Of a stretch of DNA of 12,503 nt, positions 1 to 12,503 are shown one piece after another. The position numbers were made by a program, and so were the translations under genes. The notes under the pieces were generated by a model. That model had not been told where the DNA came from. It ran no database searches and saw only the letters and a program-made list of their open reading frames with translations. Source of the DNA: Microcoleus asticus IPMA8 (lineage in GTDB: Bacteria; Cyanobacteriota; Cyanobacteriia; Cyanobacteriales; Microcoleaceae); the NCBI RefSeq assembly GCF_013179805.1, contig NZ_SRRZ01000172.1:1-12503 (forward strand), in the 5' to 3' direction. Numbering within the stretch: position 1 is the stretch's first letter; each line of letters starts with the position of its first letter.

Positions 1-90
1 TACGAAGACGAAGCGATCGCGTTTGAGCCAGTCGTCGAGTACATCAAAGATGCCTCTTTCGGTCTGGGCGCGTCCGACTGCGATTGTCAT
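1..90 (-). CDS. psbD: Photosystem II D2 protein, N-terminal 30 codons (gene continues off the left edge)
   Basis: The reverse complement of 1-90 reads ATG ACA ATC GCA GTC GGA CGC... = [30 protein letters not shown]. This closely matches the conserved D2 N-terminus ([29 protein letters not shown]). A GGAG lies about 9 nt upstream of the ATG on the minus strand. It is too short to appear in the ORF track. Confidence 0.9.
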
Positions 91-285
91 TACGCAAATC
101 TCCAAATGGATATAATTACAGCGGATCTTTCTCTAGTCATTAGTCTCCAACCGTTGCCTCTGCTTACCAGAAAACAAGTTGGATTATGAACAGAGTTTAC
201 TTTTCTTTACCGTATTGACGATTATAGAGGTAATTCTTTACAAGAGCAAGTTTTTCTTAAAAAAATTTCGGCTCTTGACTTGTCC

Positions 286-330
286 GAAGTCCCCGAAGTC
301 CCCGAAGCCCTCGAAGTCCCTGAAGTCCTT
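286..330. repeat. Tandem 9-bp repeat, 5 copies (GAAGTCCCC, GAAGTCCCC, GAAGCCCTC, GAAGTCCCT, GAAGTCCTT)
   Basis: Read directly from the sequence: five head-to-tail nonamers, with a partial unit at 281-285. They lie in the psbD upstream region and account for the artefactual SPK-rich ORF 179..454. Confidence 0.85.
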
Positions 331-506
331 GCCCTGCATTTGGGAACTTCTACTATATAGGAGTCTCTGCGCTTTGCGTCAGAAGCCCCGTGGCTTGGTA
401 GATGTATCGCCCTCAACCTCTGATTTTTCTAAGAAACTGGGTTTCCGTGGGTAAGTCCTATATATATACTGAGGATAGAGCTCCAAACTTAGGTTTTTAA
501 GACTAT

Positions 507-779
507 ATGTTCAGCATTGACATCATTGTGAAAAATACGCCCGTCTCGCTGTCGGTGCAGCGGAAGTTGGAGGAGGACGCTGAGACTGTTTACCAGCAGG
601 TACTGGCGGCGATTCGCAACTCCCAACCGCAAGTTTTGGAACTAACTTGCGAGAAAAATCCTGAGAAAAAGGTGGCTGTCGTCAGCAGCGAGATTTCTGG
701 GGTGGTGGTTTCTCAGAAATCGGGGGCGTCATCTACAGGCAGATCCCCGGGTTTTGTCTCGCTGTCGGCAGCAGAATGA
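507..779 (+). CDS. Small soluble hypothetical protein (90 aa), resembling small uncharacterized proteins I recall from cyanobacteria (from memory, unverified)
   Basis: ATG-initiated ORF. Its stop TGA (777-779) overlaps the ATG (776-778) of the downstream ABC ATPase gene as ATGA. Composition looks coding and there are no hydrophobic segments. I did not recognise a catalytic motif. Confidence 0.6.
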   Translation: MFSIDIIVKNTPVSLSVQRKLEEDAETVYQQVLAAIRNSQPQVLELTCEKNPEKKVAVVSSEISGVVVSQKSGASSTGRSPGFVSLSAAE

Positions 780-1474
780 GGGCTGGGGGTGTTGGTGCCG
801 AGATGAGCCAGTCAGCCGTTGCTGTGCGGGATTTGGGTTTTTGCTGGCCGTCGGGCGATCGAGTGTTGCAAGGTTGCTCTCTGGATGTACCCAAGGGCGA
901 GTTTTGGATGCTTTTGGGTACTAACGGCAGCGGCAAGTCTACGCTGTTGAGGCTGATGGCTGGGCTGCTGCACCCCCAGTCGGGGGAAATTGACTTGGGT
1001 GGGCGAGTGGGTTTTGTGTTCCAAAACCCGGATCACCAACTGGTGATGCCGACTGTGGGTGCGGATGTGGCTTTTGGTTTGGTGGAGGAAAAGCTTTCTA
1101 ACGTTCAGGTGCGGGAGAGGGTGGCGGAGGCTTTGGAGGCTGTGAATTTGCTGGATTTGCAGCGGCGGCCGATTTATGCTTTGAGTGGGGGCCAGAAGCA
1201 GCGAATTGCTCTTGCTGGGGCGATCGCCCGTCACTGCGAAATTCTCCTGTTGGACGAACCGACGGCTTTGTTAGATCCTGATTCTCAGTTGGATTTGGTG
1301 GCGGCGGTGCAGCGGTTGGTGAAAAATCGCGGGATTACGGCTTTGTGGGTGACTCACCGTTTGGATGAGTTGAATTATTGTGATGGGGCTTTTTTGTTGG
1401 AAAAGGGCCAAGTGGTCGATCGGGGAGATCCGGCGCGTTTGAAGCAGCGGTTGATGCAAAGTCAAGATGTTTAG
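776..1474 (+). CDS. ABC transporter ATP-binding protein, EcfA/CbiO-like (energy-coupling-factor/cobalt type)
   Basis: Walker A GTNGSGKST, Q-loop region FQNPDHQL, ABC signature LSGGQKQR, Walker B ILLLDEPT and H-loop VTHR are all present. An alternative start is ATG 803 (MSQSAVAVRDL...). Confidence 0.9.
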   Translation: MRAGGVGAEMSQSAVAVRDLGFCWPSGDRVLQGCSLDVPKGEFWMLLGTNGSGKSTLLRLMAGLLHPQSGEIDLGGRVGFVFQNPDHQLVMPTVGADVAFGLVEEKLSNVQVRERVAEALEAVNLLDLQRRPIYALSGGQKQRIALAGAIARHCEILLLDEPTALLDPDSQLDLVAAVQRLVKNRGITALWVTHRLDELNYCDGAFLLEKGQVVDRGDPARLKQRLMQSQDV

Positions 1475-1536
1475 CCCTCAAGCAATTTAAGAATTAAGTC
1501 ACTCGGCGATTGAAATCGCTGCATAGAGTGAAACGA

Positions 1537-1554
1537 AGTCTGCCTCCGCAGACT
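1537..1554. terminator. Hairpin AGTCTGC-ctcc-GCAGACT in a convergent intergenic region (weak terminator candidate)
   Basis: Perfect 7-bp stem with a 4-nt loop, between the 3' ends of the ABC ATPase (+) and the DUF4058 gene (-). There is no clear U-tract on either strand, so confidence is low. Confidence 0.25.
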
Positions 1555-1599
1555 AAGAAATAAATAGGGTATTTAACCAGAATTTGGCTCCAGCCCAAA

Positions 1600-2391
1600 T
1601 TAATCTCGCAATCCTCGATCGCGCAACCAAGCATCTGCCCAAATTGTATCGGCTTCTGATAGCGCTGGTATGACTTCCCAGTTGCGATAATCTATCTTCA
1701 GGTCGTAACTTGCTATGTCGTAAATTTGAGTGAATAATTCCTGCAAGTTTATGACAGGTTCAGTATCGCCAGATCGCAGCGGTAAAGGAAAGGCAGGAAT
1801 CGGGTTTTGCAGGTTAAAAGCATACAAATCCGCTCGGGGACGGCGATTTCCCCGACATACTAAAACGCTATAGTGACTATCAATATTGTTTTCAAGAATT
1901 GGCATTTTTCGACCGCGCCGCAATAAATCTATTTCTATTAAATGAGTGCGACTACTTAAAACTTCTTCTCGCTTTTCCTCATACATTTGTCGCCCTTTGC
2001 CTGTTCGCTTATTCGTAGGCGAGAGAATTTCAATTACTGTTATCAATTCTTTTTCCCCCCTTTCTCTAATTTCTAAATAAGCTTCTCGAAGCGTGTAAGG
2101 TATGGGAAGAGTTACTGTGAATGGTTGTGTAAGCGGTGCTGCCACCGCTACGTTTGATGCTGTTGTTACTGTTGCAGTTTGTGGCTGCATTACAGTTACG
2201 TCGGGAATGCCAATGACTGATAAATCGTCGTCAGCCGTTTCATAGATTCTCACTTCCAGCGACACTAAATACTTAGGACGCAGTTGGGGAGATAAAAACC
2301 TGAAAATTTCACTAATCAGCAAGTTATGCATCCCAGGCCAGAGTTCGGGATGCTCTAAATACGGGTCCATACCGGGAAAGGGAGATGGCAT
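1600..2391 (-). CDS. DUF4058-family protein (Uma2/PD-(D/E)xK restriction-endonuclease-like fold)
   Basis: The N-terminus MPSPFPGMDPYLEHPELWPGMHN is what I recall as typical of DUF4058. IPDV ... EILSPTNK fits a PD...ExK nuclease core. I prefer ATG 2391 over the track's TTG 2412 because AGGAG lies 8-9 nt upstream of it (caAGGAGtcaaatcaATG). Confidence 0.85.
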   Translation of the reverse strand: MPSPFPGMDPYLEHPELWPGMHNLLISEIFRFLSPQLRPKYLVSLEVRIYETADDDLSVIGIPDVTVMQPQTATVTTASNVAVAAPLTQPFTVTLPIPYTLREAYLEIRERGEKELITVIEILSPTNKRTGKGRQMYEEKREEVLSSRTHLIEIDLLRRGRKMPILENNIDSHYSVLVCRGNRRPRADLYAFNLQNPIPAFPLPLRSGDTEPVINLQELFTQIYDIASYDLKIDYRNWEVIPALSEADTIWADAWLRDRGLRD

Positions 2392-2543
2392 TGATTTGAC
2401 TCCTTGACTCAAGTCTATTTATAGTTTAGCAATACTTTTCTGGCGCGAATGGCTTGCCAACAGATTTTAGGGCATAGCTTCGCTTGTGGCAGATGATGAC
2501 TGAAGGCTCGATCGACCTTTTGCAATAATAGGTTCGATCGCAC

Positions 2544-2613
2544 ATCTTGCACTTATTGCCATGTTCCGTCGGGGGTTTAAACTCCTGCCGGAATATGGCA
2601 ACAAATGCAAGAT
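2544..2613. repeat. 70-bp imperfect palindrome (25-bp arms, 22/25 complementary), MITE/REP-like element
   Basis: Left arm 2544-2568 is ATCTTGCACTTATTGCCATGTTCCG. The reverse complement of right arm 2589-2613 is ATCTTGCATTTGTTGCCATATTCCG. The element is flanked by the direct repeat TTCGATCGCA at 2533-2542 and 2619-2628. Confidence 0.5.
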
Positions 2614-2628
2614 ATTAATTCGATCGCA

Positions 2629-2871
2629 TTAACTTTCGATCGACAATTGCATCGGAATTGGAACGCTGTTTTCATCTAAGACAGACAGCGCATTTACGAA
2701 AACAATTGTATGCGGGACTGCGGGCATTAAGCGGCGCAGTGCTTTGAGGTAAGATTCGGCATCGGGGCGGCGGCTGAAACGAGCGACTGTTAACCGCTGA
2801 CAGTTGGGGAGGTGGCGAATTATGCACCAAGGTTGAAGTCGATCGCGATATGTCGGTTGTTTTGGTATCAT
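2629..2871 (-). CDS. Small hypothetical protein (80 aa)
   Basis: ATG start with GGAAGGA about 7 nt upstream on the minus strand. The segment WCIIRHLPNCQRLTVARFSRRPDAESYLKALRRLMP resembles small proteins I recall from cyanobacteria. Function is unknown. Confidence 0.55.
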   Translation of the reverse strand: MIPKQPTYRDRLQPWCIIRHLPNCQRLTVARFSRRPDAESYLKALRRLMPAVPHTIVFVNALSVLDENSVPIPMQLSIES

Positions 2872-2969
2872 AGGAAAATCCTTCCCACTTTTGTGGGTGG
2901 TGAATGAAAGGCGATCGCTCTAGATTTCTCAGGTCCGAGGGCGATCGCTATTAATTGTATATTCATTAA

Positions 2970-2987
2970 ATTACGAGTAGTCGTAAT
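2970..2987. promoter_or_regulatory. Candidate operator palindrome ATTACGA-gtag-TCGTAAT just upstream of the HTH gene
   Basis: Perfect 7-bp inverted repeat. It ends 13 nt before ATG 3001 and starts a few nt downstream of a -10-like TATATT (2958-2963). This position fits autoregulation by the adjacent XRE-type repressor. Confidence 0.3.
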
Positions 2988-3000
2988 TGTCAAGGGCGGA

Positions 3001-3213
3001 ATGGGACGAATTAGACTGCGAGTTCGAGAACTTGCTCAAGAGAAGGGTTGGACTCTTAGGGAAGTCTCCAACAGAACGGGTATTCCATACACTACGATCG
3101 CCACCTATGCCAGTTCTCCAGGTATGGCAACTGTTGACTACACGGCTTTGGACAAGATGGCTCGTGCGTTCGATATTGCGATCGAAGATTTAGTCGAGAT
3201 TTTGGAACAGTAA
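3001..3213 (+). CDS. XRE/Cro-CI family helix-turn-helix transcriptional regulator (70 aa)
   Basis: LRELAQEKGWTLREVSNRTGIPYTTIATY is a canonical HTH_3-type helix-turn-helix pattern. AAGGGCGGA lies directly upstream of the ATG. The overlapping ORF 2987..3193 is in another frame and is rejected. Confidence 0.85.
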   Translation: MGRIRLRVRELAQEKGWTLREVSNRTGIPYTTIATYASSPGMATVDYTALDKMARAFDIAIEDLVEILEQ

Positions 3214-3273
3214 ACTGATTGTGCGTAAAGGACGGCTCTTGCGTTAGCACTTTTTACACGATACTTGCGTATA

Positions 3274-3302
3274 TTGGAATTTTCCGGCTGTAGACTATAG
3301 TC
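3274..3302 (+). promoter_or_regulatory. Candidate sigma70-type promoter (TTGGAA, 16 nt spacer, TATAGT) with a 10-bp palindrome GACTATAGTC over the -10
   Basis: TTGGAA is at 3274-3279 and TATAGT at 3296-3301, 16 nt apart. The perfect palindrome GACTATAGTC (3293-3302) overlaps the -10 element. All of this lies upstream of ORF 3334. Confidence 0.3.
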
Positions 3303-3333
3303 AGGAGTTGTTCAGTCTGCCGGAGTTATATTA

Positions 3334-3825
3334 ATGCCGATCGATCGCCTGTCTGACATGGAAGGGAACTTGGAAGATCTGAAAGAGCAATTAGTGGGCA
3401 AGGTAAAGGCTCTAAATTTAGCACCGCAAGAAGAAAAGATCCGAATTAAACAGCAAATCCGAGAGCTACGCAAGGAGATTCGGGAGCAGGAAGAGGAGGA
3501 TTGGCAGGTTCTCGCTCAGCAAACGAAAACGGTGGAAATTCCCGAACAGGAAGCTGAGATTATTGTTGCCGAGATTGTCGAAGAAGTTGGGCAAATTGAA
3601 GTGCAGGGACAGTATCCCGATGAGGTAATTCAGATTTTGCAGGAGATTCGGGACAGGCTAAACCAACCGGGACCGACAGCAGCCGCGAAACTTAAAGGCG
3701 TGATCTCAACTAATTTCCCGTTCCTGGGAATTTCCTACGAGGCTGAAGTGGATACAGAGGAGTTATTCAACCAGCATTTCCCAACGTTCAACAGGTTAAT
3801 TAAGGCATTAGCAAAAAAGCCCTAG
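3334..3825 (+). CDS. 163-aa coiled-coil/acidic protein with an amphipathic C-terminal segment; probably the N-terminal module of the downstream NB-ARC-TPR protein
   Basis: ATG with GGAG 9 nt upstream. Heptad-like charged region LEDLKEQLVGKVKAL...IRIKQQIRELRKEIREQEEE, then an acidic stretch, then AAKLKGVISTNFPFLGISYEAEVDTEELF. The ORF ends ...GCA AAA AAG CCC TAG, overlapping the open upstream part of the NB-ARC frame. Confidence 0.75.
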   Translation: MPIDRLSDMEGNLEDLKEQLVGKVKALNLAPQEEKIRIKQQIRELRKEIREQEEEDWQVLAQQTKTVEIPEQEAEIIVAEIVEEVGQIEVQGQYPDEVIQILQEIRDRLNQPGPTAAAKLKGVISTNFPFLGISYEAEVDTEELFNQHFPTFNRLIKALAKKP

Positions 3826-3856
3826 ACCTGGAGCGAAAAACACCGAATCCAGGTTT
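3801..3856 (+). other. Candidate -1 recoding cassette: SD-like UAAGG (3801-3805), slippery A_AAA_AAG (3813-3819), hairpin 3824-3832/3848-3856
   Basis: In the zero frame the heptamer reads GC-A AAA AAG, which is the correct X_XXY_YYZ phase. A -1 shift makes GCC (3819-3821) the next codon, and this is in the frame of ORF 3930..6101. ACCTGGA (3826-3832) pairs perfectly with TCCAGGT (3848-3854). The stem is extended by a G-U and an A-U pair, and the loop is 15 nt. Confidence 0.5.
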
Positions 3857-3929
3857 CACAAGTTTTTACCAACTATACGATATTCCCTCCGAACTCGGTT
3901 CCAAAAACTTTGTCGGACGGGATGAGGAA

Positions 3930-6101
3930 ATGCAGCAGTTGCACGGATTGTTGCAGGATGGAAGCCGCGTTGCCATTGCCGCTGCGTCGGGAATGGGCGG
4001 CATCGGCAAGACAGAATTGGTATGGCAGTATGCAACTTTTCACCGCGAACAGAACACCTATTCAGCGGGGATTTGGTGGCTGTTTGTCCGGGACAACGAT
4101 TTAGCGCCCCAGGTGTTGCAGAAAGCGCTGCGAATGGGAATTCAGCCGCCGGATACTCTCGACAATCTGGAGGAACGGTTGCAGTTTTGCTACGAAGAGT
4201 GGGCAAAACAAACCTCTGGCAATGCTCTGCTGGTATTGGATGATGTCAACGATTACCGCAGGGTGGAGCGGTTGCTGCCTAGAAATCCCCGCTTTAAAGT
4301 GTTGCTGACAGCGCGACAAATTGTGCCCCCGCCTGTGGGGTGTTTGCCGTTAAAAGTGTTGAAACCAGAGGCGGCGCTAAACTTGCTGCGGCTGACGGCA
4401 GGGGATTTGCCGGGAAACCGACTGGGTTTAAATATTGATGCCCAGCTTGAAGATGCTCAAGCACTTTGTCAGTGGTTGGATTATTTGCCTTTGGGCATCG
4501 AACTGGTGGGGCGCTATTTGCGACGCAAGCGGGCGCTGTCCTTGGCAACAGTGCTGCAACGGTTGCAGAGTCAGCGATTGGAGGCGCGGGCATTGCAGGA
4601 GGCGGAAGCTGGGATGACGGCTAGGCGCGGAGTGGCGGCAGCTTTTGAGTTGAGTTGGGCGGAGTTGAAACCTCCCGCGCGGACGCTGGGGTGTCTGCTG
4701 AGCGTGTTTGCTCTGGCTCCGATTCCTTGGGAGTTGGTAGCCGAGTGTTTGCCGGATTGGGATGAGGAGGAGATGGAGGATTGTCGGGATTACGAACTGC
4801 TGGAACAGAGTTTGCTGTCGCTGGTGGAGGATGAAACCTCTGATCCAGCTCAATCTGGGCTGGTGCAGCCACGCTATCAACTTCATGCTTTGATTCGGGA
4901 GTTTTTTGCGGCCAAATTGCAGGGACACGCCGATGCTGAGAATTTGCGGAGAAGTTTTGCGGCGGTGCTGACAGCGGTGGCGAAGACGATTCCGCAGACT
5001 GTGACGCTGGAGGTGCAGGAACGGGTGAAGGAGGCGTTGCCTCATTTGGATGTGGTGGCGGAGCAATGGTCACATCTGCTGGAAGATAGTGATGCTGTGT
5101 GGTCTTTCACGGTTTTGGGGCTGATTGCTAAGGGACAGAGTTTGTGGGCAGAGGCAGAAAAGTGGTTCAAAGCTTGCCTCCAGATGACAGAGAAACGTTG
5201 CGGAGCCGAACATTCCCTTACGGCAAAGAGTTTGAACAATCTGGCATTGCTGTACGATGCAATGGGACGCTACCCAGAGGCGGAACCCTTGTATGTGCGA
5301 TCGCTCTCTATTTACGAGCAGCAGCTCGGAGCCGACCATCCCGATACAGCTCTGAGTTTGAACAATCTGGCAGCCCTGTACTATGCAATGGGTCGCTACG
5401 CGGAAGCGGAACCTTTGTATGTGCGATCGTTCTCGATTTACGAGCAGCAGCTAGGAGGCGATCATCCCAATACGGCTACGACTTTGAGCAATCAGGCAGA
5501 GCTATACCGTGCGATGGGACGCTACCCAGAAGCGGAACCCTTGTATGTACGCTCGCTCGCCATCAGGGAGCAGCAGCTCGGAGCGGAACATCCCGATACA
5601 GCTCTGAGTTTGAACAATCAGGCATTGCTGTACCATGCAATGGGTCGCTACCCGGAGGCGGAACCCTTGTATGTGCGAGCGATCGCGATCAGAGAGCAAA
5701 AGCTCGGAGCAGAAGATCCCTATACGGCAACGAGTTTGAACAATCTGGCACAACTATACAGTGCAATGGGACGTTACCAGGAGGCGGAACCCTTGTCTAT
5801 TCGATCGCTCTCTATCCATGAGCAACAGCTCGGAGCCGACCATCTCCATACGGCAAGTAGTTTGAACAATCTGGCAGCGCTGTATTGTGCAATGGGACGC
5901 TACCCGGAAGCAGAACCCCTGTATGTGCGATCATTAGAAATTTTGTTTAACCGATTGGGGAAGAATCATCCCAACACCCAAAGAGTTTGTAGGAATTTCA
6001 TTAATTTTCTCCAGAAGGCGATATCAGCGGGTCAAGAGTCGCAACTGTCGCAGCATCCAACAACGCAAGCAATGCTTCAGCAACTTCGGGAGACGGAGTA
6101 G
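3930..6101 (+). CDS. NB-ARC (STAND/AP-ATPase) NTPase with a C-terminal TPR array (NLR-like protein); the true N-terminus probably lies upstream of 3930
   Basis: Walker A GMGGIGKT (3990-4013), Walker B LLVLDDV (4227-4247), KVLLTAR (RNBS-B-like), LPLGIELVG (GLPL-like) and LHALIREFF (MHD-like, from 4881). These are followed by 7 TPR_10/12-type 42-aa repeats (about 5103-5984). Confidence 0.92.
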   Translation: MQQLHGLLQDGSRVAIAAASGMGGIGKTELVWQYATFHREQNTYSAGIWWLFVRDNDLAPQVLQKALRMGIQPPDTLDNLEERLQFCYEEWAKQTSGNALLVLDDVNDYRRVERLLPRNPRFKVLLTARQIVPPPVGCLPLKVLKPEAALNLLRLTAGDLPGNRLGLNIDAQLEDAQALCQWLDYLPLGIELVGRYLRRKRALSLATVLQRLQSQRLEARALQEAEAGMTARRGVAAAFELSWAELKPPARTLGCLLSVFALAPIPWELVAECLPDWDEEEMEDCRDYELLEQSLLSLVEDETSDPAQSGLVQPRYQLHALIREFFAAKLQGHADAENLRRSFAAVLTAVAKTIPQTVTLEVQERVKEALPHLDVVAEQWSHLLEDSDAVWSFTVLGLIAKGQSLWAEAEKWFKACLQMTEKRCGAEHSLTAKSLNNLALLYDAMGRYPEAEPLYVRSLSIYEQQLGADHPDTALSLNNLAALYYAMGRYAEAEPLYVRSFSIYEQQLGGDHPNTATTLSNQAELYRAMGRYPEAEPLYVRSLAIREQQLGAEHPDTALSLNNQALLYHAMGRYPEAEPLYVRAIAIREQKLGAEDPYTATSLNNLAQLYSAMGRYQEAEPLSIRSLSIHEQQLGADHLHTASSLNNLAALYCAMGRYPEAEPLYVRSLEILFNRLGKNHPNTQRVCRNFINFLQKAISAGQESQLSQHPTTQAMLQQLRETE
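5229..5984 (+). repeat. Six in-frame tandem 126-bp repeats (42-aa TPR units), highly similar at the DNA level
   Basis: Units start at 5229, 5355, 5481, 5607, 5733 and 5859, exactly 126 bp apart. The consensus is SLNNLAxLYxAMGRYPEAEPLYVRSLSIxEQQLGADHPDTAx. A degenerate unit precedes the array at 5103-5228. Confidence 0.9.
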
Positions 6102-6140
6102 CTGTTGCTGCTAGAGCGATTATTGCCAACTTCCTACAAA

Positions 6141-6240
6141 ACTTACGCATGGGGTCCAGAAACCGGGTTTTTTCCATAATACTTCGTTACAGCTTGCAGA
6201 TAAGGCAAAAAACCCGGTTTCTTTGACGAAGCGCATAAGT
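6141..6240. repeat. 100-bp imperfect palindromic element with a perfect 16-bp inner inverted repeat
   Basis: AGAAACCGGGTTTTTT (6158-6173) is the exact reverse complement of AAAAAACCCGGTTTCT (6207-6222), with a 33-nt spacer. Outer arms ACTTACGC (6141-6148) and GCATAAGT (6233-6240) match 7/8. Confidence 0.6.
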
Positions 6241-6282
6241 CTCGATCGCATTAAAAAGAGGTAAGTTGTGATTTTTCGTTGG

Positions 6283-6345
6283 GTGGGGGCGGGTTTTTGA
6301 GATTGTCTATCTGTGTCATAAAGGGTTGGAAAAACCCGCCCCCAC
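6283..6345. repeat. Second long inverted repeat, perfect 16-bp arms with a 31-nt spacer
   Basis: GTGGGGGCGGGTTTTT (6283-6298) is the exact reverse complement of AAAAACCCGCCCCCAC (6330-6345). It shares the CGGGTTTTT...AAAAACCCG core and the overall architecture with the element at 6158-6222. Confidence 0.6.
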
Positions 6346-6392
6346 AGGTCGATCGAGGATGTGCGATATCTCAGATTTTACGGTTAATTCCC

Positions 6393-7901
6393 CTACTTCA
6401 TCTCATATCCAAACAAATTCGGATCGACTTCACCCAAATTCAAATCAGCCAAACCATACTCAGCCCAACGCCGATCGACCATCGCGGCCACATCCGGATC
6501 GGACTCCAAAACTTCACCCCATTCGTGATCGGTTTCCGGCGGCATCTTCGTAGTAGCATCAATCCCCATTCTGCCTCCCAAACCAATCTTTTCACTGGCA
6601 AAATCTAACGTATCAAAAGGCGTATTCGGCAGAATAAATACATCCCGAACCGGATCGACTTTAGAACTAATTGCCCAAACTACTTGACGCGGGTCGCGAA
6701 TGTTGATACTTTTATCGACAACAATCACAAACTTAGTGTAAGTAAACTGCGGTAATGCACTCCAAAATGCTAAAGCAGCCCTGCGCGCTTGACCGGGATA
6801 TGCTTTATCAATCGAGATAATTGCGGCTTTATAACTCAGGGCTTCCATCGGTAAGAAGAAATCGACAATTTCCGATACTTGCTGCCGCAAAATAGGGGTA
6901 TAAATACGGTTAAGCGCGATCGCCATCATTGCTTCTTCTTTCGGCGGCCGCCCGCTAAATGTCGTCAGATAAATCGGGTCTTTGCGGTGCGTCATGCAGT
7001 GGAACCGCACCAACGGCGAATCTTCCACGCCGCCGTAATAACCCATGTGATCGCCGAAGGGCCCGTCGGGCAGAACTTCCCCCGGCGTAATCGTTCCTTC
7101 TAACACAATTTCCGAGTCCGCCGGTACTTCCAAATCTACGGTTTTGCACTTCGCCAATTGCACGCCGGAACCGCCGTAAAGTCCCGCAAATAACCATTCC
7201 GATAAATCTACAGGAATTGGGGTTGCTGCGGCGAGAATAATCAGGGGATCGACTCCCAGGGCGATCGCAATTTCCAACTTTTTACCAGCCTGCGCCGCTT
7301 TCCGTAAGTGTCGCGCCCCGCCCCGCACCGATAACCAGTGTACAGTCATCGTGTTTTTTGACTGCAACTGCAACCGATAAACCCCCACATTCGGAGTGCC
7401 CGTTTCGCAATCTTTGGTAATTACCAAACCCAGGGTGATAATTTTGCCCGCATCTCCCGAATAAGGGCGAATCATCGGGATTTTGTTCAAATCCACCCCT
7501 TCTCCCTCAAATACCACTTGCTGACAAGCTGGGAAAAAGTTGCGGCCGGGTTTGGCTTTCACTACGTCAAACAGCACTTTGCCGAATTCTATCGCTTGGG
7601 AAATCTTTTTCGGCGGTTTTGGCTGTTGCAGCATTCCCAGTTTTTTGCCGAGCTCTTCTAGTTCGATCGGCTTTTCCATGTTCATCGCCCAGCAAACGCG
7701 CTCTTCCGTACCCAACAGGTTAATGGCGACGGGGAAATCTGCCCCTTTGACGTTTTCAAACAGCAATCCAGGGCCGCCTTTTTGCAGCATTTGGTTGGAA
7801 ATTTCGGCAATTTCGAGGTCGGAATCGACTAAGGCGCTAATCCGGCGCAGTTGTCCCCGTTCTTCGAGCAGTTTTAGGAATCCCCGCAAGTCTCTTGCCA
7901 T
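6393..7901 (-). CDS. ubiD: UbiD-family (de)carboxylase, 4-hydroxy-3-polyprenylbenzoate decarboxylase-like (plastoquinone pathway in cyanobacteria)
   Basis: The 502-aa length and the N-terminus MARDLRGFLKLLEERGQLRRISALVDSDLEIAEI are typical of UbiD. Conserved blocks GVYRLQ, HWL..RGGARH and GPFGDHMGYY are present. Confidence 0.92.
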   Translation of the reverse strand: MARDLRGFLKLLEERGQLRRISALVDSDLEIAEISNQMLQKGGPGLLFENVKGADFPVAINLLGTEERVCWAMNMEKPIELEELGKKLGMLQQPKPPKKISQAIEFGKVLFDVVKAKPGRNFFPACQQVVFEGEGVDLNKIPMIRPYSGDAGKIITLGLVITKDCETGTPNVGVYRLQLQSKNTMTVHWLSVRGGARHLRKAAQAGKKLEIAIALGVDPLIILAAATPIPVDLSEWLFAGLYGGSGVQLAKCKTVDLEVPADSEIVLEGTITPGEVLPDGPFGDHMGYYGGVEDSPLVRFHCMTHRKDPIYLTTFSGRPPKEEAMMAIALNRIYTPILRQQVSEIVDFFLPMEALSYKAAIISIDKAYPGQARRAALAFWSALPQFTYTKFVIVVDKSINIRDPRQVVWAISSKVDPVRDVFILPNTPFDTLDFASEKIGLGGRMGIDATTKMPPETDHEWGEVLESDPDVAAMVDRRWAEYGLADLNLGEVDPNLFGYEMK

Positions 7902-8077
7902 TGTTGTTAAAGAAATGTTAAGTGTCCCTACTATTATGCGGCGATCGGGGGATGGAGTGCGGGGTGGGAGCGATCGGGCGATCGCTAAATAAATTTCTAT
8001 TGTTATCGTTAGTCTATGAGTTGGTATTTCTCAGATTCATCAAAAATTGACTTTAGCTAATTTTTATTAGCAATACT

Positions 8078-8107
8078 CTTAACCATAATTTAAACAAAGC
8101 TTATTCT
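8078..8107 (+). promoter_or_regulatory. Pho box set 1: three 8-bp direct repeats at 11-bp spacing (CTTAACCA taa TTTAAACA aag CTTATTCT)
   Basis: Fits the cyanobacterial SphR/PhoB box pattern of PyTTAAPyPy(T/A) repeats separated by 3-bp A/T-rich linkers. The first unit is exact and units 2 and 3 each have one mismatch. It lies upstream of pstS. Confidence 0.55.
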
Positions 8108-8125
8108 AATATTATTTAATCTACT

Positions 8126-8155
8126 ATTAACCAAAATTTAAAACAAGCTTATTCT
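8126..8155 (+). promoter_or_regulatory. Pho box set 2: ATTAACCA aaa TTTAAAAC aag CTTATTCT
   Basis: Near-identical copy of set 1, 48 bp downstream, with the same 8+3 periodicity. It ends about 80 bp upstream of the pstS ATG. Confidence 0.55.
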
Positions 8156-8235
8156 ATTAAATCTCTTTCCTTGGGGGTTTCAGTCTATCCTATGGAGGAG
8201 ATTTGCAAAGTCGGCTATTAAGGGAGAGGAGGAAT

Positions 8236-9264
8236 ATGAATTTTTTCACAGGACGTTGGCGACGTAGTTTTATAGTGATACTAGCAGCAGCAGCATTTTC
8301 GCTGACTTTGATTAGTTCCGCTGTAGCTGCTGTAACCCTAAATGGTTCGGGAGCAACTTTCCCTAAACCTCTTTACGATCGCTACTTCTCTCAGATGAGA
8401 AGTGCAAATCAAATTACTGTAAACTACGAAGGAACCGGCAGCGGTGCTGGCATCAAAGCATTAATTACAGGCACTGTTGATTTCGCAGGCAGCGACGCGC
8501 TGATGACTGCTGCACAAATAGCCGAAGTAAAGCGCGGCGTCATGGCGATTCCGACTGCTGGCGGTGCTGTTGCAGTTGTTTATAACTTGCCCGGAGTGAC
8601 CAATCTGAGGCTAAATAAGGATGCCATGAACGGCATCTTTGAAGGCAAGATTACTCGCTGGAATGATGCGAAAATAGCCGGAATTTCTGGACAAGCTAAA
8701 AACTTGCCAAATACTCCCATTCGAGTAGCTGTACGCGCAGATAGCAGCGGTACAACCTTTATTTTTGCTAACCACTTGCAGGCAACTGGTAGCAGCATCA
8801 AAGCTGCCGCGCAACCGAAGTGGCCCGGAAGCCCTGTCAGCGGTCAAGGAAACCCCGGCGTAGCTGCTTTGGTGAAGAATACAGCGGGTGCGATCGGCTA
8901 CGTTCAAGATACTTATGCTCGGCAAAACAATCTCCAAACAGCATTTATTCAAAATAAAGCTGGCCGATTTGTAGATCCTAGCTTGGCTGAAGCAGAGAAA
9001 GCTTTAGCAGGGGAAACATTCCCCGCAGATTTCCGCTTAGTAGAAGGCAATCCTAACGACGGTTATCCGATTGTTGGTTTGACTTGGCTGTTAATCTACA
9101 AACAGTATCCTGCTGCGAAAGCAGAGGCTATTAAAAAGATGGTTAATTGGGTGATGACTACAGGTCAAGGTATCAACAAACAGCTAGAGTATACTACAAT
9201 TCCTTCAGCTACAGCTCAAAAGGTGGTTCAAACAGTTAATCAGACTGTGGTTGCCAGAGGTTAA
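8236..9264 (+). CDS. pstS: Phosphate ABC transporter substrate-binding protein PstS
   Basis: I prefer ATG 8236, preceded by AGGGAGAGGAGG, over the track's TTG 8203. An N-terminal signal peptide ends in AVA-AV. The mature protein has LNGSGATFP, GTGSGAGI and DSSGTT motifs typical of PstS, and pstCAB follow. Confidence 0.92.
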   Translation: MNFFTGRWRRSFIVILAAAAFSLTLISSAVAAVTLNGSGATFPKPLYDRYFSQMRSANQITVNYEGTGSGAGIKALITGTVDFAGSDALMTAAQIAEVKRGVMAIPTAGGAVAVVYNLPGVTNLRLNKDAMNGIFEGKITRWNDAKIAGISGQAKNLPNTPIRVAVRADSSGTTFIFANHLQATGSSIKAAAQPKWPGSPVSGQGNPGVAALVKNTAGAIGYVQDTYARQNNLQTAFIQNKAGRFVDPSLAEAEKALAGETFPADFRLVEGNPNDGYPIVGLTWLLIYKQYPAAKAEAIKKMVNWVMTTGQGINKQLEYTTIPSATAQKVVQTVNQTVVARG

Positions 9265-9360
9265 TTTGGGCGATCGCACAGGGTTAGGAGTTTACGAGTT
9301 AAATGTAGGACTCAAAACTCAGAAATTATCAAGTTAATGTGCGCTAGATTTACTGTGTAA

Positions 9361-9377
9361 GGTGCGCTGTGCGCACC
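9361..9377 (+). other. GC-rich hairpin GGTGCGC-tgt-GCGCACC (pstS-pstC intergenic region)
   Basis: Perfect 7-bp stem with a 3-nt loop and no following U-tract. A near-identical copy lies 27 bp downstream. Confidence 0.6.
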
Positions 9378-9387
9378 CTACAAACCA

Positions 9388-9404
9388 GGTGCGCAGCGCG
9401 CACC
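9388..9404 (+). other. GC-rich hairpin GGTGCGC-agc-GCGCACC (second copy)
   Basis: Perfect 7-bp stem with a 3-nt loop. Both copies are followed by C, giving GCGCACCC. Confidence 0.6.
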
Positions 9405-9462
9405 CAGCCCATTAAATTACTCGTCTTGCAAGCAAATATTTCACTTTTTACGCGATTCCGGT

Positions 9463-10464
9463 ATGACCAATATTTCAAAAAAAACGAAAAAACAGACTCG
9501 GCAACCGGCAGAAATAAACACAGAAGTAGATTTAACAGATACTACTGGTGAAGGTTTATGGATGGAGTCAGGATTTACACTATTTGTATGGGGTTTTGCC
9601 TTAGCGACAGCGGGTACGCTGTTTTGGATGAGTGCGGTAATTTTTAAAGATGCTTGGCCAGCTATTAGCGAATTTGGACTCTCATTCTTGTGGAATCCCA
9701 AGTGGGATATCGGCGAGTTGCAGTTTGGGGCTTTGCCGTTTATTTACGGTACTGTAATTAGTTCTGCGATCGGCATAATCATCGCACTTCCTTTAGGGCT
9801 GTCAGTAGCTATAGTTACTAGCGAGAACTTCTTACCCGTTTGGGTGCGATCGCCCTTGGGATTCATGGTTGAATTAATCTCGGCTATTCCCAGCGTGATA
9901 GTTGGCCTGTGGGGAATCTTTGTTTTGATTCCCTTTTTGTTGCCATTGCAGCAGTCATTGTTCGATAATTTCAGTTGGTTTCCCCTGTTCAGCAGCGAAC
10001 CTTTAGGCCCCGGAATGCTGCCGGCTGGAATACTGTTATCAATTATGATTTTGCCAACAGTAGCTGCCATCAGCCGCGATGTATTGATGTCAGTTCCCGT
10101 AGATTTGCGCAGTGCTTCCATGTCCCTCGGTGCCACCCGCTGGGAAACGATATTCAAGCTGTTATTGCCAGCAGCTAGTTCGGGGATTATCGGGGCTACA
10201 ATCTTGGCTTTGGGACGCGCTTTAGGCGAAACAATGGCCGTCACAATGGTGATTGGCAACTCGATTCAAATTAACCAATCCCTGCTAGCTCCCAGCTACT
10301 CAATTCCTGCTGTTTTGGCGAGTCAATTTCGGGAAGCTCTCGAACCGCTGCACATCGGCGCTTTGATGTATTTAGCCCTAATTTTATTTGCGATCACTTT
10401 GTTGGTAAATGCGATCGCAGTATTGCTAGTTCAGCTAATCGGCGTCAAGGGATCTAAAAATTAA
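9463..10464 (+). CDS. pstC: Phosphate ABC transporter permease PstC
   Basis: Multi-pass membrane protein with an EAA-like loop (ASMSLGATRWETIFKLLLPAA) and ALGRALGETMAV. It sits between pstS and pstA. The start is uncertain; an internal ATG at M34 has a GAAGG upstream. Confidence 0.9.
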   Translation: MTNISKKTKKQTRQPAEINTEVDLTDTTGEGLWMESGFTLFVWGFALATAGTLFWMSAVIFKDAWPAISEFGLSFLWNPKWDIGELQFGALPFIYGTVISSAIGIIIALPLGLSVAIVTSENFLPVWVRSPLGFMVELISAIPSVIVGLWGIFVLIPFLLPLQQSLFDNFSWFPLFSSEPLGPGMLPAGILLSIMILPTVAAISRDVLMSVPVDLRSASMSLGATRWETIFKLLLPAASSGIIGATILALGRALGETMAVTMVIGNSIQINQSLLAPSYSIPAVLASQFREALEPLHIGALMYLALILFAITLLVNAIAVLLVQLIGVKGSKN

Positions 10465-10576
10465 CACGCTCGAAAGTAATTGGTAACAAGCCATTTTATG
10501 TATTCTTTCCCCGGCTCAGGACGGAGAAAGAGAAAAGTGTAACATCCTGAGAACAAACTTGCGGATAAATCCGCAG

Positions 10577-10611
10577 AATCAATCTAAAATCTAAAATCTA
10601 AAATCTAAAAT
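10577..10611. repeat. Tandem heptamer repeat AATCTAA, 4 full copies (10581-10608) plus partial flanking units, STRR-like
   Basis: Read directly from the sequence. The array ends 4-6 nt before the pstA ATG (10615). It is preceded by hairpins CTCAGGA...TCCTGAG (10515-10551) and TGCGGA-taaa-TCCGCA (10560-10575). Confidence 0.85.
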
Positions 10612-10614
10612 TGC

Positions 10615-11595
10615 ATGACTCAAGTAAAAAAATCAAACAGTATTCTGGATGCAGAAATCAACAATCCCCTGTCGCTAAGCCGAAAATTTTTCAGCCGGGG
10701 GATGACAGTTATCGCTTTCGCTCTGACAGCTCTCGCCCTGCTCCCTTTGTTTGCTATCTTATACAAAATCCTGGGAGAAGGACTCACACATTTGAGCTGG
10801 GAAGTGCTAGTGTCTCTACCAGCACCCGTTGGAGTTGAAGACCAGCCCAACGGCTTTGCCAATGCGATTCTTGGGACAGCTTTAATGGTAGGAATTGCTA
10901 CGTTATTTAGTGTTCCAATCGGCGTAATGACGGGAATATTTCTGTCTGAGTTTGGTAGAGACAACAAAGCGCTGGCTAATAGCATCCGCTTTATCACCGT
11001 CATTCTCAGCAGCGTTCCCTCGATCGTAGTTGGCGTCTTTTCCTATGCCCTAATTGTCATTACCACCAAAGCATTTTCATCCTTAGCAGGCGGTTTTGCC
11101 CTTGGCATCATCATGCTTCCAGTTGTTGCTCTGACAACAGAACAAGCATTAAAATTAGTGCCTACTTCTTACCGCCTCGCTTCTGCTGCTTTGGGAGGCG
11201 GACGCTTTCAAACGATGTTTCGCACGATCGTACCCTCAGCACTTCCAACTATTACCACAGGTATTTTACTAGCTGCTTCCCGGGCCGCCGGCGAAACCGC
11301 ACCGCTGATTGTAACAGCGTTGTCGAGTCAATTTTGGCCTCCTTTAGTTGATAAGTTGGGCGAGATAATGCAGTCCCCCATAGGTGAAGAAACTATCTCA
11401 AAACTCAAAGAAATTCCCGAGACATTGCTGACTCCTACTCCTTCTATGTCAGTATTAATATATAGCTACGCCAGCTCTCCCTACAAAGAGCAGAACGAAT
11501 TGGCGTGGACTGCTGCCTCTGTGCTTTTGGGCATGGTTTTGATTGCTAGCGTCGCATCCCGTACAGTAACTCGGAAACGCTTTCAAAAGCGATAA
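10615..11595 (+). CDS. pstA: Phosphate ABC transporter permease PstA
   Basis: Multi-pass membrane protein with an EAA-like loop (ASAALGGGRFQTMFRTIVPSALP) and SRAAGETAPL. It sits between pstC and pstB. It seems to carry an extra hydrophilic segment (PPLVDKLGEIMQSPIGEETISKLKEIPETLL) relative to the PstA proteins I recall. Confidence 0.9.
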   Translation: MTQVKKSNSILDAEINNPLSLSRKFFSRGMTVIAFALTALALLPLFAILYKILGEGLTHLSWEVLVSLPAPVGVEDQPNGFANAILGTALMVGIATLFSVPIGVMTGIFLSEFGRDNKALANSIRFITVILSSVPSIVVGVFSYALIVITTKAFSSLAGGFALGIIMLPVVALTTEQALKLVPTSYRLASAALGGGRFQTMFRTIVPSALPTITTGILLAASRAAGETAPLIVTALSSQFWPPLVDKLGEIMQSPIGEETISKLKEIPETLLTPTPSMSVLIYSYASSPYKEQNELAWTAASVLLGMVLIASVASRTVTRKRFQKR

Positions 11596-11651
11596 ATCAA
11601 TAACTAAAGTCCATCTATCAGTCCAATATTAACAATATAACCAAGCAAATA

Positions 11652-12503
11652 ATGAAACCTAAAGCTAACTTGAAGGCCGAAAACTCTACAGAGAAATTTC
11701 TAGAAAATGCCACGCCGGAAATTGACCCCAATGCAATGCCAGCACTGCGGGTGCAGGACTTGAGTTTTTATTACGGAACTTACAAAGTCTTAGAAAATTT
11801 ATCGATGAATATCCCTCACCCGCAAATTACCGCGATTATTGGCCCTTCAGGTTGCGGCAAATCTACCTTTCTCAAAGCTCTCAACCGGATTGGTGAATTG
11901 GAGGGAAAGGTTAAAATTAAAGGAAGAGTAGAGTTTTTTGGACAGGATATTTACAGCCCGAAAGTAAACATTAATAGTTTGCGTCGCCAAATTGGGATGG
12001 TGTTTCAAAGACCGAATCCTTTTCCGCTGAGCATCTACGATAATATTGCTTACGGGGTGAGGATTTTTGGTCGCAAAAGCAAAGCAGAATTAGATGAAAT
12101 TGTGGAATCTGCACTTAAAAGTGCGGCGCTTTGGAATGAAGTCAAAGACGATTTGAAGAAATCGGCTCAGGGGATTTCGGGGGGACAGCAGCAGCGACTT
12201 TGTATTGCTCGCGCTTTGGCTGTGAAGCCGAAAATTTTGCTAATGGATGAACCTTGTTCTGCTCTAGATCCGATTTCAACGATGAAGATTGAGGAGTTAT
12301 TTCAGACTCTGCGGCAGCAGTTGACTGTTGTGATTGTGACCCACAATATGCAGCAGGCGGCTCGGGTTTCTGATTACACGGCATTTTTTAATACTGATGA
12401 AAGTCGCATCGGCCGCCTAGTTGAATTTGGGCCGACAAGTAAGATTTTTACTTCTGCGGGCAATTCGAGTACGAGAGATTACATTCAAGGCCGTTTCGGT
12501 TAA
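11652..12503 (+). CDS. pstB: Phosphate ABC transporter ATP-binding protein PstB
   Basis: Walker A GPSGCGKST, LSGGQQQRLCIARAL, Walker B ILLMDEPCSALD, H-loop VTHN, and the C-terminus YIQGRFG typical of PstB. The stop TAA is at 12501-12503. An alternative start is ATG 11736 (MPALRVQDL...). Confidence 0.93.
   Translation: MKPKANLKAENSTEKFLENATPEIDPNAMPALRVQDLSFYYGTYKVLENLSMNIPHPQITAIIGPSGCGKSTFLKALNRIGELEGKVKIKGRVEFFGQDIYSPKVNINSLRRQIGMVFQRPNPFPLSIYDNIAYGVRIFGRKSKAELDEIVESALKSAALWNEVKDDLKKSAQGISGGQQQRLCIARALAVKPKILLMDEPCSALDPISTMKIEELFQTLRQQLTVVIVTHNMQQAARVSDYTAFFNTDESRIGRLVEFGPTSKIFTSAGNSSTRDYIQGRFG

Follow-up and report, generated by a model that had tools for sequence, protein, structure and literature searches.

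The locus described here raises the question of how a long coding frame that opens well ahead of its first possible start codon comes to be translated. It lies in a 12,503-nucleotide (nt) stretch of the cyanobacterium Microcoleus asticus IPMA8 (contig NZ_SRRZ01000172.1, positions 1 to 12,503 of the forward strand), which we call the window. A short open reading frame (ORF1) finishes there with GCA(3811) AAA AAG CCC TAG(3823-3825), and the frame one base back (-1) has a TAA at 3801-3803, after which it stays open from 3804 through 6101, with ATG 3930 as its first ATG, GTG or TTG codon. From the comparison with related loci, we consider it highly probable that the two frames, which encode a small helical domain (the N-domain) and an NB-ARC NTPase with tetratricopeptide repeats (TPR), are one gene expressed by programmed -1 frameshifting. 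The features of the locus are as follows.

3322..3325, + strand: GGAG, a Shine-Dalgarno (SD)-like element 8 nt 5' of the ORF1 start codon, read from the sequence and with a putative function
3334..3825, + strand: ORF1 in the 0 frame, starting at ATG 3334 and encoding the 163-residue all-alpha N-domain, the product of standard decoding
3801..3805, + strand: UAAGG, SD-like, 7 nt 5' of the heptamer; its TAA (3801-3803) is the last stop of the -1 frame
3813..3819, + strand: A_AAA_AAG slippery heptamer in X_XXY_YYZ phase, the proposed site of the -1 shift
3819..3929, + strand: coding linker of the -1 frame, ALDLERKTPNPGFTSFYQLYDIPSELGSKNFVGRDEE, which lacks its own start codon
3819..6101, + strand: -1-frame part of the fusion (760 residues and a stop codon), comprising an NB-ARC NTPase with TPR sensor repeats
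3823..3825, + strand: TAG stop of the 0 frame, one codon past the heptamer
3824..3856, + strand: possible 3' stem-loop (9 bp, 15-nt loop), 4 nt past the heptamer
3921..4589, + strand: NB-ARC domain (PF00931), with Walker A GMGGIGKT at 3990-4013 and LLVLDDV at 4227-4247
5145..6068, + strand: TPR_12/TPR_10 repeat array, a putative sensor

The end of ORF1, the heptamer, the -1 frame, the UAAGG and the 9-bp stem all lie where a first-pass annotation of this DNA had placed them, as checked by re-reading the sequence. On recomputing, the -1 ORF has no ATG, GTG or TTG before 3930, and the conceptual slip product is 922 residues long (162 + 760) with the junction ...ALAKKALDLER..., again as that annotation had it. 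In Pfam the -1 ORF matches NB-ARC (PF00931, E = 4e-13, above the cut-off) and TPR_12 (E = 6e-97). With its Walker A and Walker B motifs and its repeat array, it can be placed among the STAND NTPases (signal-transduction ATPases that have numerous domains), in the NB-ARC (AP-ATPase) clade with a TPR sensor.

In the mechanism that we propose, ribosomes would initiate at ATG 3334, and the majority of them would decode GCA AAA AAG CCC and terminate at TAG 3823, releasing the free 163-residue helical N-domain. A minority would slip one base back on A_AAA_AAG (3813-3819), with the two tRNA-Lys re-pairing on AAA AAA, and would resume at GCC 3819 to complete a 922-residue N-domain-NB-ARC-TPR protein, a bacterial NOD-like receptor (NLR)-like STAND NTPase.

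The heptamer on its own carries little weight, as AAAAAAG occurs twice in the 12.5-kb window (both strands counted) against 6.2 times expected from shuffles. A single such heptamer is thus unremarkable by chance, and it is the related loci that have to carry the argument. With the N-domain and the linker together as query, 172 proteins were retrieved. The best 120 of them were listed and come from genomes of Microcoleus and from numerous metagenomes. All of these best 120 (69-93% identity) are stand-alone proteins, mostly of 163 residues, none of them crosses the junction, and 120/120 finish with [A/P/T/K]KK[S/P/L]-stop. From species-representative genomes we recovered 25 loci. The intact split loci of the Microcoleus type carry NNA AAA AAG NNN TAG in 12/12 cases, followed by an NB-ARC-TPR ORF in the -1 frame of 735 (cut by a contig end) to 932 residues.

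An in-phase A_AAA_AAG is present in all 18 of the 18 tabulated A-tract-type loci, and the 0-frame stop follows either at once or after one codon; the codon before AAA AAG varies among them (GCA, CCA, ACA, TCA or GAA). The three loci obtained by scanning metagenomes with a close alignment (L036-L038 in our numbering) have A_AAA_AAG as well, and the finished plasmid pCRI9333.05 of Crinalium epipsammum PCC 9333 shows heptamer and split alike. The orthologue alignment that the first-pass annotation had called for thus finds the same split and in-phase heptamer across more than 130 sequences of several genera (isolates, metagenome-assembled genomes, metagenomes and a finished plasmid), not in this genome alone. 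Its proposal of a -1 shift at A_AAA_AAG, giving a free 163-residue module and a 922-residue NLR-like protein, gains strong support from this comparison.

A split of this kind might also arise from a sequencing or assembly error, from a recent inactivating frameshift (a pseudogene) or from a phase-variable A-tract, all of which had been raised at first pass. Homopolymers are error-prone, in-frame variants do occur (A7 in L012, and A10 in L018, which is a single 875-residue ORF), and decayed copies are found (L012, L017 and L036). Against these explanations, the same split recurs in sequences from independent sources that include the finished plasmid, and both ORFs are under purifying selection (see below). 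The length of the A6G tract is invariant in 18/18 loci, without the polymorphism of contingency loci, and the G_GGA_AAA found at this site in the more distant locus L033 is not a homopolymer at all. The conserved split, the constant A6G and the selection lead us to reject error, pseudogene and phase variation for the window locus as highly improbable.

The decayed copies differ in what they have lost. In L012 (4001-5887) the A7 tract puts the N-domain in frame and joined directly to the TPRs, the NB-ARC domain being deleted; L017 (4474-4504) has kept the N-domain and the heptamer and lost the downstream ORF; and in L036 (2971-3327) the NB-ARC domain is truncated after 118 codons. Close relatives (L001-L013, with -1 ORFs of 765 to 932 residues) also vary in how many TPR_12 units they have, which suggests repeat expansion and contraction in the putative TPR sensor.

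The segment of the -1 frame that lies upstream of any start codon was examined by comparing non-synonymous and synonymous differences per site (pN and pS). For positions 3858-3929 in 13 Microcoleus loci, the -1 frame gives a pS of 0.194 and a pN of 0.005 (pN/pS 0.028), as opposed to pN/pS values of 4.4 and 2.0 for the two remaining frames, and third codon positions of the -1 frame account for 7 of the 9 variable columns. Judged by this substitution pattern, the start-less segment is under strong purifying selection, and in the -1 frame only. The first 13 codons past the slip (3819-3857) form a variable linker in which pS is lowered (0.096 vs 0.18-0.19 nearby). ORF1 itself has a pN/pS of 0.46 in frame vs about 1.2 off frame. 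The ungapped values for the first 600 nt of the NB-ARC region were unreliable, with probable indels, and were not used.

The arrangement extends well beyond Microcoleus. In Nostoc, Anabaena, Stigonema and Coleofasciculaceae we found loci whose N-domains are 47-57% identical and in which, for the Nostocales type, ORF1 ends ATT AAA AAA AAA CAG ... with a stop three codons later (A9). The -1 frame of this type is stop-free for about 714 codons and runs for up to 264 codons without ATG, GTG or TTG. Its partner is another STAND NTPase, with matches to the Pfam families nSTAND_NTPase4/nSTAND3 and, for the ORF at 4492-6627 of L015 (relatives L014-L025), to the PADLOC candidate PDC-S60 at E = 8e-85. 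The latter match begins at about position 148-186 of the profile, so the PDC-S60 proteins seem to carry a different N-terminal domain. Further loci combine the N-domain with other ends and other -1 partners:

L026: GCA AAA AAG TAG, DUF7779-TPR
L028: ACA AAA AAG TAA, NB-ARC-TPR
L030: GAA AAA AAG TAA, nSTAND1 with pentapeptide repeats
L032: TCA AAA AAG TAA, protein with transmembrane (TM) helices
L033: GAG GGA AAA TAA, with an in-phase G_GGA_AAA, nSTAND1
L039 (Crinalium plasmid): GCA AAA AAG TTG TAG, NACHT

The 0-frame stop abuts the heptamer in L026, L028, L030, L032 and L033. Counted over all these loci, the N-domain and its slip site precede at least five partners, namely four clades of STAND NTPase (NB-ARC, NACHT, nSTAND1, nSTAND3/4- and PDC-S60-like) and a TM protein, and the slip site varies at the same place and in the same phase (A_AAA_AAG, G_GGA_AAA, or A9 with A_AAA_AAA inside it). 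Members of the gene family occur in Microcoleus, Coleofasciculaceae, Crinalium, Aerosakkonema-like taxa, Nostoc, Anabaena and Stigonema.

On the Crinalium plasmid (NC_019736.1, pCRI9333.05; L039, 3152-5565) the cassette is followed by a -1 ORF of 647 codons that encodes a NACHT protein, and RefSeq gives two separate coding sequences (CDS) for this locus, both with late starts and with no frameshift noted. In the complete genome of Anabaena azotica SJ-1 (L019, 4480-4489) an A10 run is directly followed by TAA (GGA ATA AAA AAA AAA TAA). This A10 still needs a -1 shift, so the A-run lineages are not uniform in the length of the tract or in its context. One further Nostocales-type locus, L025, has acquired stops in its -1 frame and may be decaying.

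These relatives bear on the possibility of two independent genes, in which the NB-ARC-TPR protein would have a start of its own, either ATG 3930 or some non-canonical codon, and the overlap and the heptamer would be incidental. Gene callers and RefSeq do annotate two separate CDS, a GAGGA stands just 5' of ATG 3930, and N-domain genes without any partner exist: L034 and L035, whose N-domain tails lack KK and which have no overlapping downstream ORF, are true stand-alone genes, and therefore the N-domain also exists alone. What argues against two genes is, in the window, the strong purifying selection upstream of 3930 in the -1 frame only, together with the Pfam NB-ARC and AAA_16 matches, which start at ...NFVGRDEE, 3-8 residues ahead of the first ATG. 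A CTG at 3828, the only one in frame, is not conserved. In relatives, moreover, two motifs lie upstream of any start: the Walker A motif GDEQSGKT (codon 87-88) precedes the first possible start codon in 7/10 split loci of the Nostocales type (L025 being one of these), and so does the nSTAND1 motif CPYRGL...FFGRE in L030 and L033.

Fused in-frame orthologues exist as well. P0188 is a naturally in-frame N-domain-nSTAND1 protein, and when a -1 shift is applied conceptually to L033 and L030, each product aligns to it in one unbroken high-scoring segment pair straight across the junction, with 60% (L033) and 55% (L030) identity over about 610 residues. The heptamer gives a further argument. Elsewhere in ORF1 the lysine codons are evenly divided (103 AAA vs 101 AAG), and the slip site reads NNA AAA AAG in 18/18 loci; by this count of codons, the heptamer is kept beyond what the protein sequence requires. 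Separate initiation as the whole explanation of the locus is hence, in our estimate, very hard to credit.

Given one gene, the -1 shift could be made by the ribosome or by the RNA polymerase. In transcriptional slippage the polymerase would add one A within the A-run, and some mRNAs would then be read through with no ribosome shift. Such a mechanism fits the Nostocales-type junctions, which are A9 (A10 in L019) and lack significant downstream structure, since runs of nine A or T slip efficiently in bacteria and are used by Thermus dnaX (Atkins et al. 2016, PMC5009743). The in-frame variants also have exactly one A more (L018 A10, L012 A7). The slip site of the window, however, has no homopolymer run of about nine or more A or T, as found in the Nostocales-type relatives; like that of all Microcoleus-type loci it has A6 followed by an invariant G, an optimal ribosomal heptamer. 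In E. coli, A_AAA_AAG ranks with the heptamers that slip most efficiently, and the genes of that species avoid it (Sharma et al. 2014, PMC4066793).

Other observations likewise favour tandem slippage by the ribosome: the X_XXY_YYZ phase, which a polymerase does not need, is kept at every slip site, the G at heptamer position 7 is invariant in the A6 lineages, and the 0-frame stop follows zero or one codon past the site in heptamer-type loci. The G_GGA_AAA of L033 contains four A only, and, being non-homopolymeric, argues for tandem tRNA slippage and not for an effect of an A-run. At the window locus the -1 shift is thus most likely ribosomal, transcriptional slippage being an unlikely source of the fusion there; in the A9 lineages the shift is possibly transcriptional.

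The first-pass annotation had described a dnaX-type layout, with candidate stimulators on both sides of the heptamer. The window stem (3824-3832 paired with 3848-3856) has 9 bp with one G.U and a minimum free energy of -14.2 kcal/mol (z = -3.1 vs shuffles), and it is kept in 13/16 close relatives. Non-homologous stems occur at the same position in L033, L028, L030 and L026, starting 2-8 nt past the heptamer. The one in L033 has 11 bp and -21 kcal/mol and is matched by 0/667 native windows, and the corresponding fractions are 4% for L028, 7% for L030 and 10% for L026. Over six lineages, the combined Fisher p for downstream structure is 8e-4 (0.025 without L033); the A9/A10 lineages gave no significant downstream structure. 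For the upstream element, the Lys codon within AAGG is AAG in 14/16 loci, which are related to one another, vs about 50:50 elsewhere in ORF1, and L032, L033 and most A9 loci lack the element.

Several points weigh against programmed frameshifting as we propose it. The folding of the hairpin is equalled by 22% of the native 50-nt windows taken from this gene, uncompensated breaks in the stem occur in L001, L010 and L013, all of which retain the split, and a covariation test over the 16 close relatives detected no compensatory changes. The SD-like element is a weak 4-nt match, AAGG, that results from a conserved Lys codon and a codon starting with G (Ala/Val), and its spacing of 7 nt is shorter than the 10 nt of E. 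coli dnaX. An Rfam search of 3600-4100 (E <= 10) gave no frameshift-element family. In E. coli the high shiftiness of AAG relies on a sole tRNA-Lys(UUU). Polymerase slippage would yield the same protein, and some independent initiation may take place at ATG 3930, because of the GAGGA just upstream, giving an NB-ARC protein that lacks the N-domain. Finally, the case for recoding is wholly one of comparative inference. The AAGG element and the window hairpin are real sequences for which a stimulatory role is possible but unproven, and the neighbouring 0-frame stop may likewise stimulate the shift.

The resemblance to E. coli dnaX (tau/gamma) lies in the same A_AAA_AAG, an upstream purine-rich element complementary to the 16S tail, a stem-loop a few nt downstream, and two products. 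The SD element of dnaX, AGGGAG, has a spacing of 10 nt, and high efficiency there requires the long stem. The layout supposed at first pass stands as far as heptamer, UAAGG and stem are present, and falls short in that the SD match is only AAGG at 7 nt, the stem lacks covariation and Rfam has no frameshift match. The architecture of the ORFs does not follow dnaX: the shift there leads to the shorter product, whereas in the window it leads to the longer one, as the -1 frame runs on for 760 codons.

A closer likeness in architecture is found elsewhere. In the orfA/orfAB genes of the IS3 family (IS911, IS3, IS150) and in retroviral Gag/Gag-Pol, a 3' stem or pseudoknot often accompanies the slip site. 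As in the window, standard decoding gives a short protein and the -1 shift a fusion to a long start-less ORF, and the short ORF ends just past an in-phase slippery heptamer, often A_AAA_AAG (partly after Sharma et al. 2014, PMC4066793). The window gene differs from them in being chromosomal and non-mobile, in encoding a STAND/NLR-like NTPase and not a transposase or polymerase, and in having putative stimulators only. Phage lambda G/GT shifts by -1 at a set ratio on G_GGA_AAG near the end of the short ORF, with the short product in excess and the fusion scarce; this slip site is close to the G_GGA_AAA of L033, and the proteins and their biology are unrelated. Thermus thermophilus dnaX, with transcriptional slippage on a 9-nt run (PMC5009743), is comparable to the Nostocales-type relatives with their A9/A10, in contrast to the A6G of the window.

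What is the N-domain? An AlphaFold2 model built from a 50-sequence alignment is all-helical, with eight helices (predicted local distance difference test, pLDDT, 83; predicted template modelling score, pTM, 0.70), in which a long N-terminal helical hairpin is followed by shorter helices. Foldseek gave no match of this model in the PDB at E <= 0.001, the top matches being designed helical bundles, and a profile search of the PDB sequences returned nothing convincing. The window N-domain has no match in Pfam, NCBIfam or PADLOC, including the Pfam effector-associated domain (EAD) family EAD9 (PF19962), for which sub-threshold matches were seen in 3/50 and 3/40 family members (E about 0.004-0.008). 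Look-ups of identical sequences for the window ORF1 and for the protein P0289 found none on record.

A profile search with the N-domain collected 258 family representatives after clustering at 50% identity. Among the 76 of stand-alone size, mutually less than 50% identical, 53/76 have KK within the last 8 residues and 33/76 finish exactly with KK-stop. The N-domain was also seen at the extreme C-terminus of long proteins (P0125, P0203, P0215, P0223, P0123) that include an SNF2 helicase, NACHT, STAS-LRR-Roc-COR and TRADD-N-like proteins, and some of these again finish with ..AKK-stop. They could be three-part genes (X, N-domain, slip into a STAND protein) or fusions made in gene calling.

The surroundings of the window locus offer little further context. 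Upstream of ORF1, a weak promoter-like match lies at 3274-3301, and the region of about 900 nt at 2413-3333 contains no ORF of at least 90 residues and weak promoter-like matches only. From their ORF translations the neighbours appear to be housekeeping or unrelated genes: an ABC ATPase (776-1474), a conserved 270-residue protein (1600-2412, - strand), a UbiD-like decarboxylase (6393-7901, - strand) and a phosphate-transport pstSCAB-like cluster (8203-12503). In the same reading of translations, no other defence-like gene is obvious beside the locus. Related loci are frequently found among toxin-antitoxin genes (PIN, DUF433, Uma2).

The bacterial antiviral STAND/NLR-like proteins (Avs, bNACHT, PDC-S60) have the same order of a variable N-terminal domain, a STAND NTPase and a repeat sensor, but are described as single ORFs, with no recoding reported in the papers searched. 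In PADLOC the NB-ARC-TPR part of the window matches the generic TPR model only and no defence-system model, and a defence function of this locus, suggested by analogy, is putative. In STAND defence proteins, the place taken by the N-domain is that of an effector or adaptor domain; the gene would therefore provide a sensor fusion in small amounts plus an excess of the free N-domain, both from one coding sequence. Once activated, the oligomer might recruit the free N-domain, or the free N-domain might hold the oligomer back.

Shared small non-enzymatic domains are familiar from fungal HET-S/NWD2 and from bacterial amyloid-signalling pairs, where a STAND NTPase and the protein of an adjacent gene carry the same one. 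Effector-associated domains are likewise present on a STAND protein and on a protein encoded by a neighbour, with proposed homotypic contacts (Kaur et al. 2020, PMC7159879). Unlike in either kind of pair, the free partner here has no added effector domain, and the similarity to EAD9 is marginal. In our case both partners would come from one coding sequence via recoding, so they would be identical by construction. If the free N-domain is recruited or nucleated by the sensor oligomer, or keeps that oligomer in check, this would be a one-gene version of the logic of inflammasome adaptors or of HET-S/NWD2. We put forward only tentatively, as a possibility and not as our expectation, that the portable recoding cassette (an N-domain of about 163 helical residues, a -1 slip site and a stop) marks an unrecognised class of cyanobacterial NLR-like genes with such one-gene sensor/free-domain signalling.

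As a mechanism, such recoding is classical; in an NLR-like receptor family it seems not to have been described. To our knowledge, bacterial genes that are non-mobile and rely on programmed -1 frameshifting are few (dnaX, copA, csoS2, cdd and some others). Neither frameshifting nor slippage is mentioned by Kaur et al. 2020 (PMC7159879), two recoding surveys (PMC5009743, PMC3711429) mention no such genes, and searches of open-access full texts for frameshifting together with NLR, STAND or defence gave nothing relevant.

Taken together, if this reading of the locus is true, a whole gene family would be added to bacterial recoding, and the variety of its slip sites (A_AAA_AAG, G_GGA_AAA, A9) would make it a good system for comparing ribosomal with polymerase slippage in cyanobacteria. 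NLR-like genes would then be systematically mis-annotated as a "hypothetical protein" plus an N-terminally truncated STAND protein, as for example on NC_019736.1, and surveys of bacterial NLR architecture would therefore miss the N-terminal domain. The fixed ratio of sensor to free domain would, in turn, be a testable design principle for bacterial NLR-like signalling.

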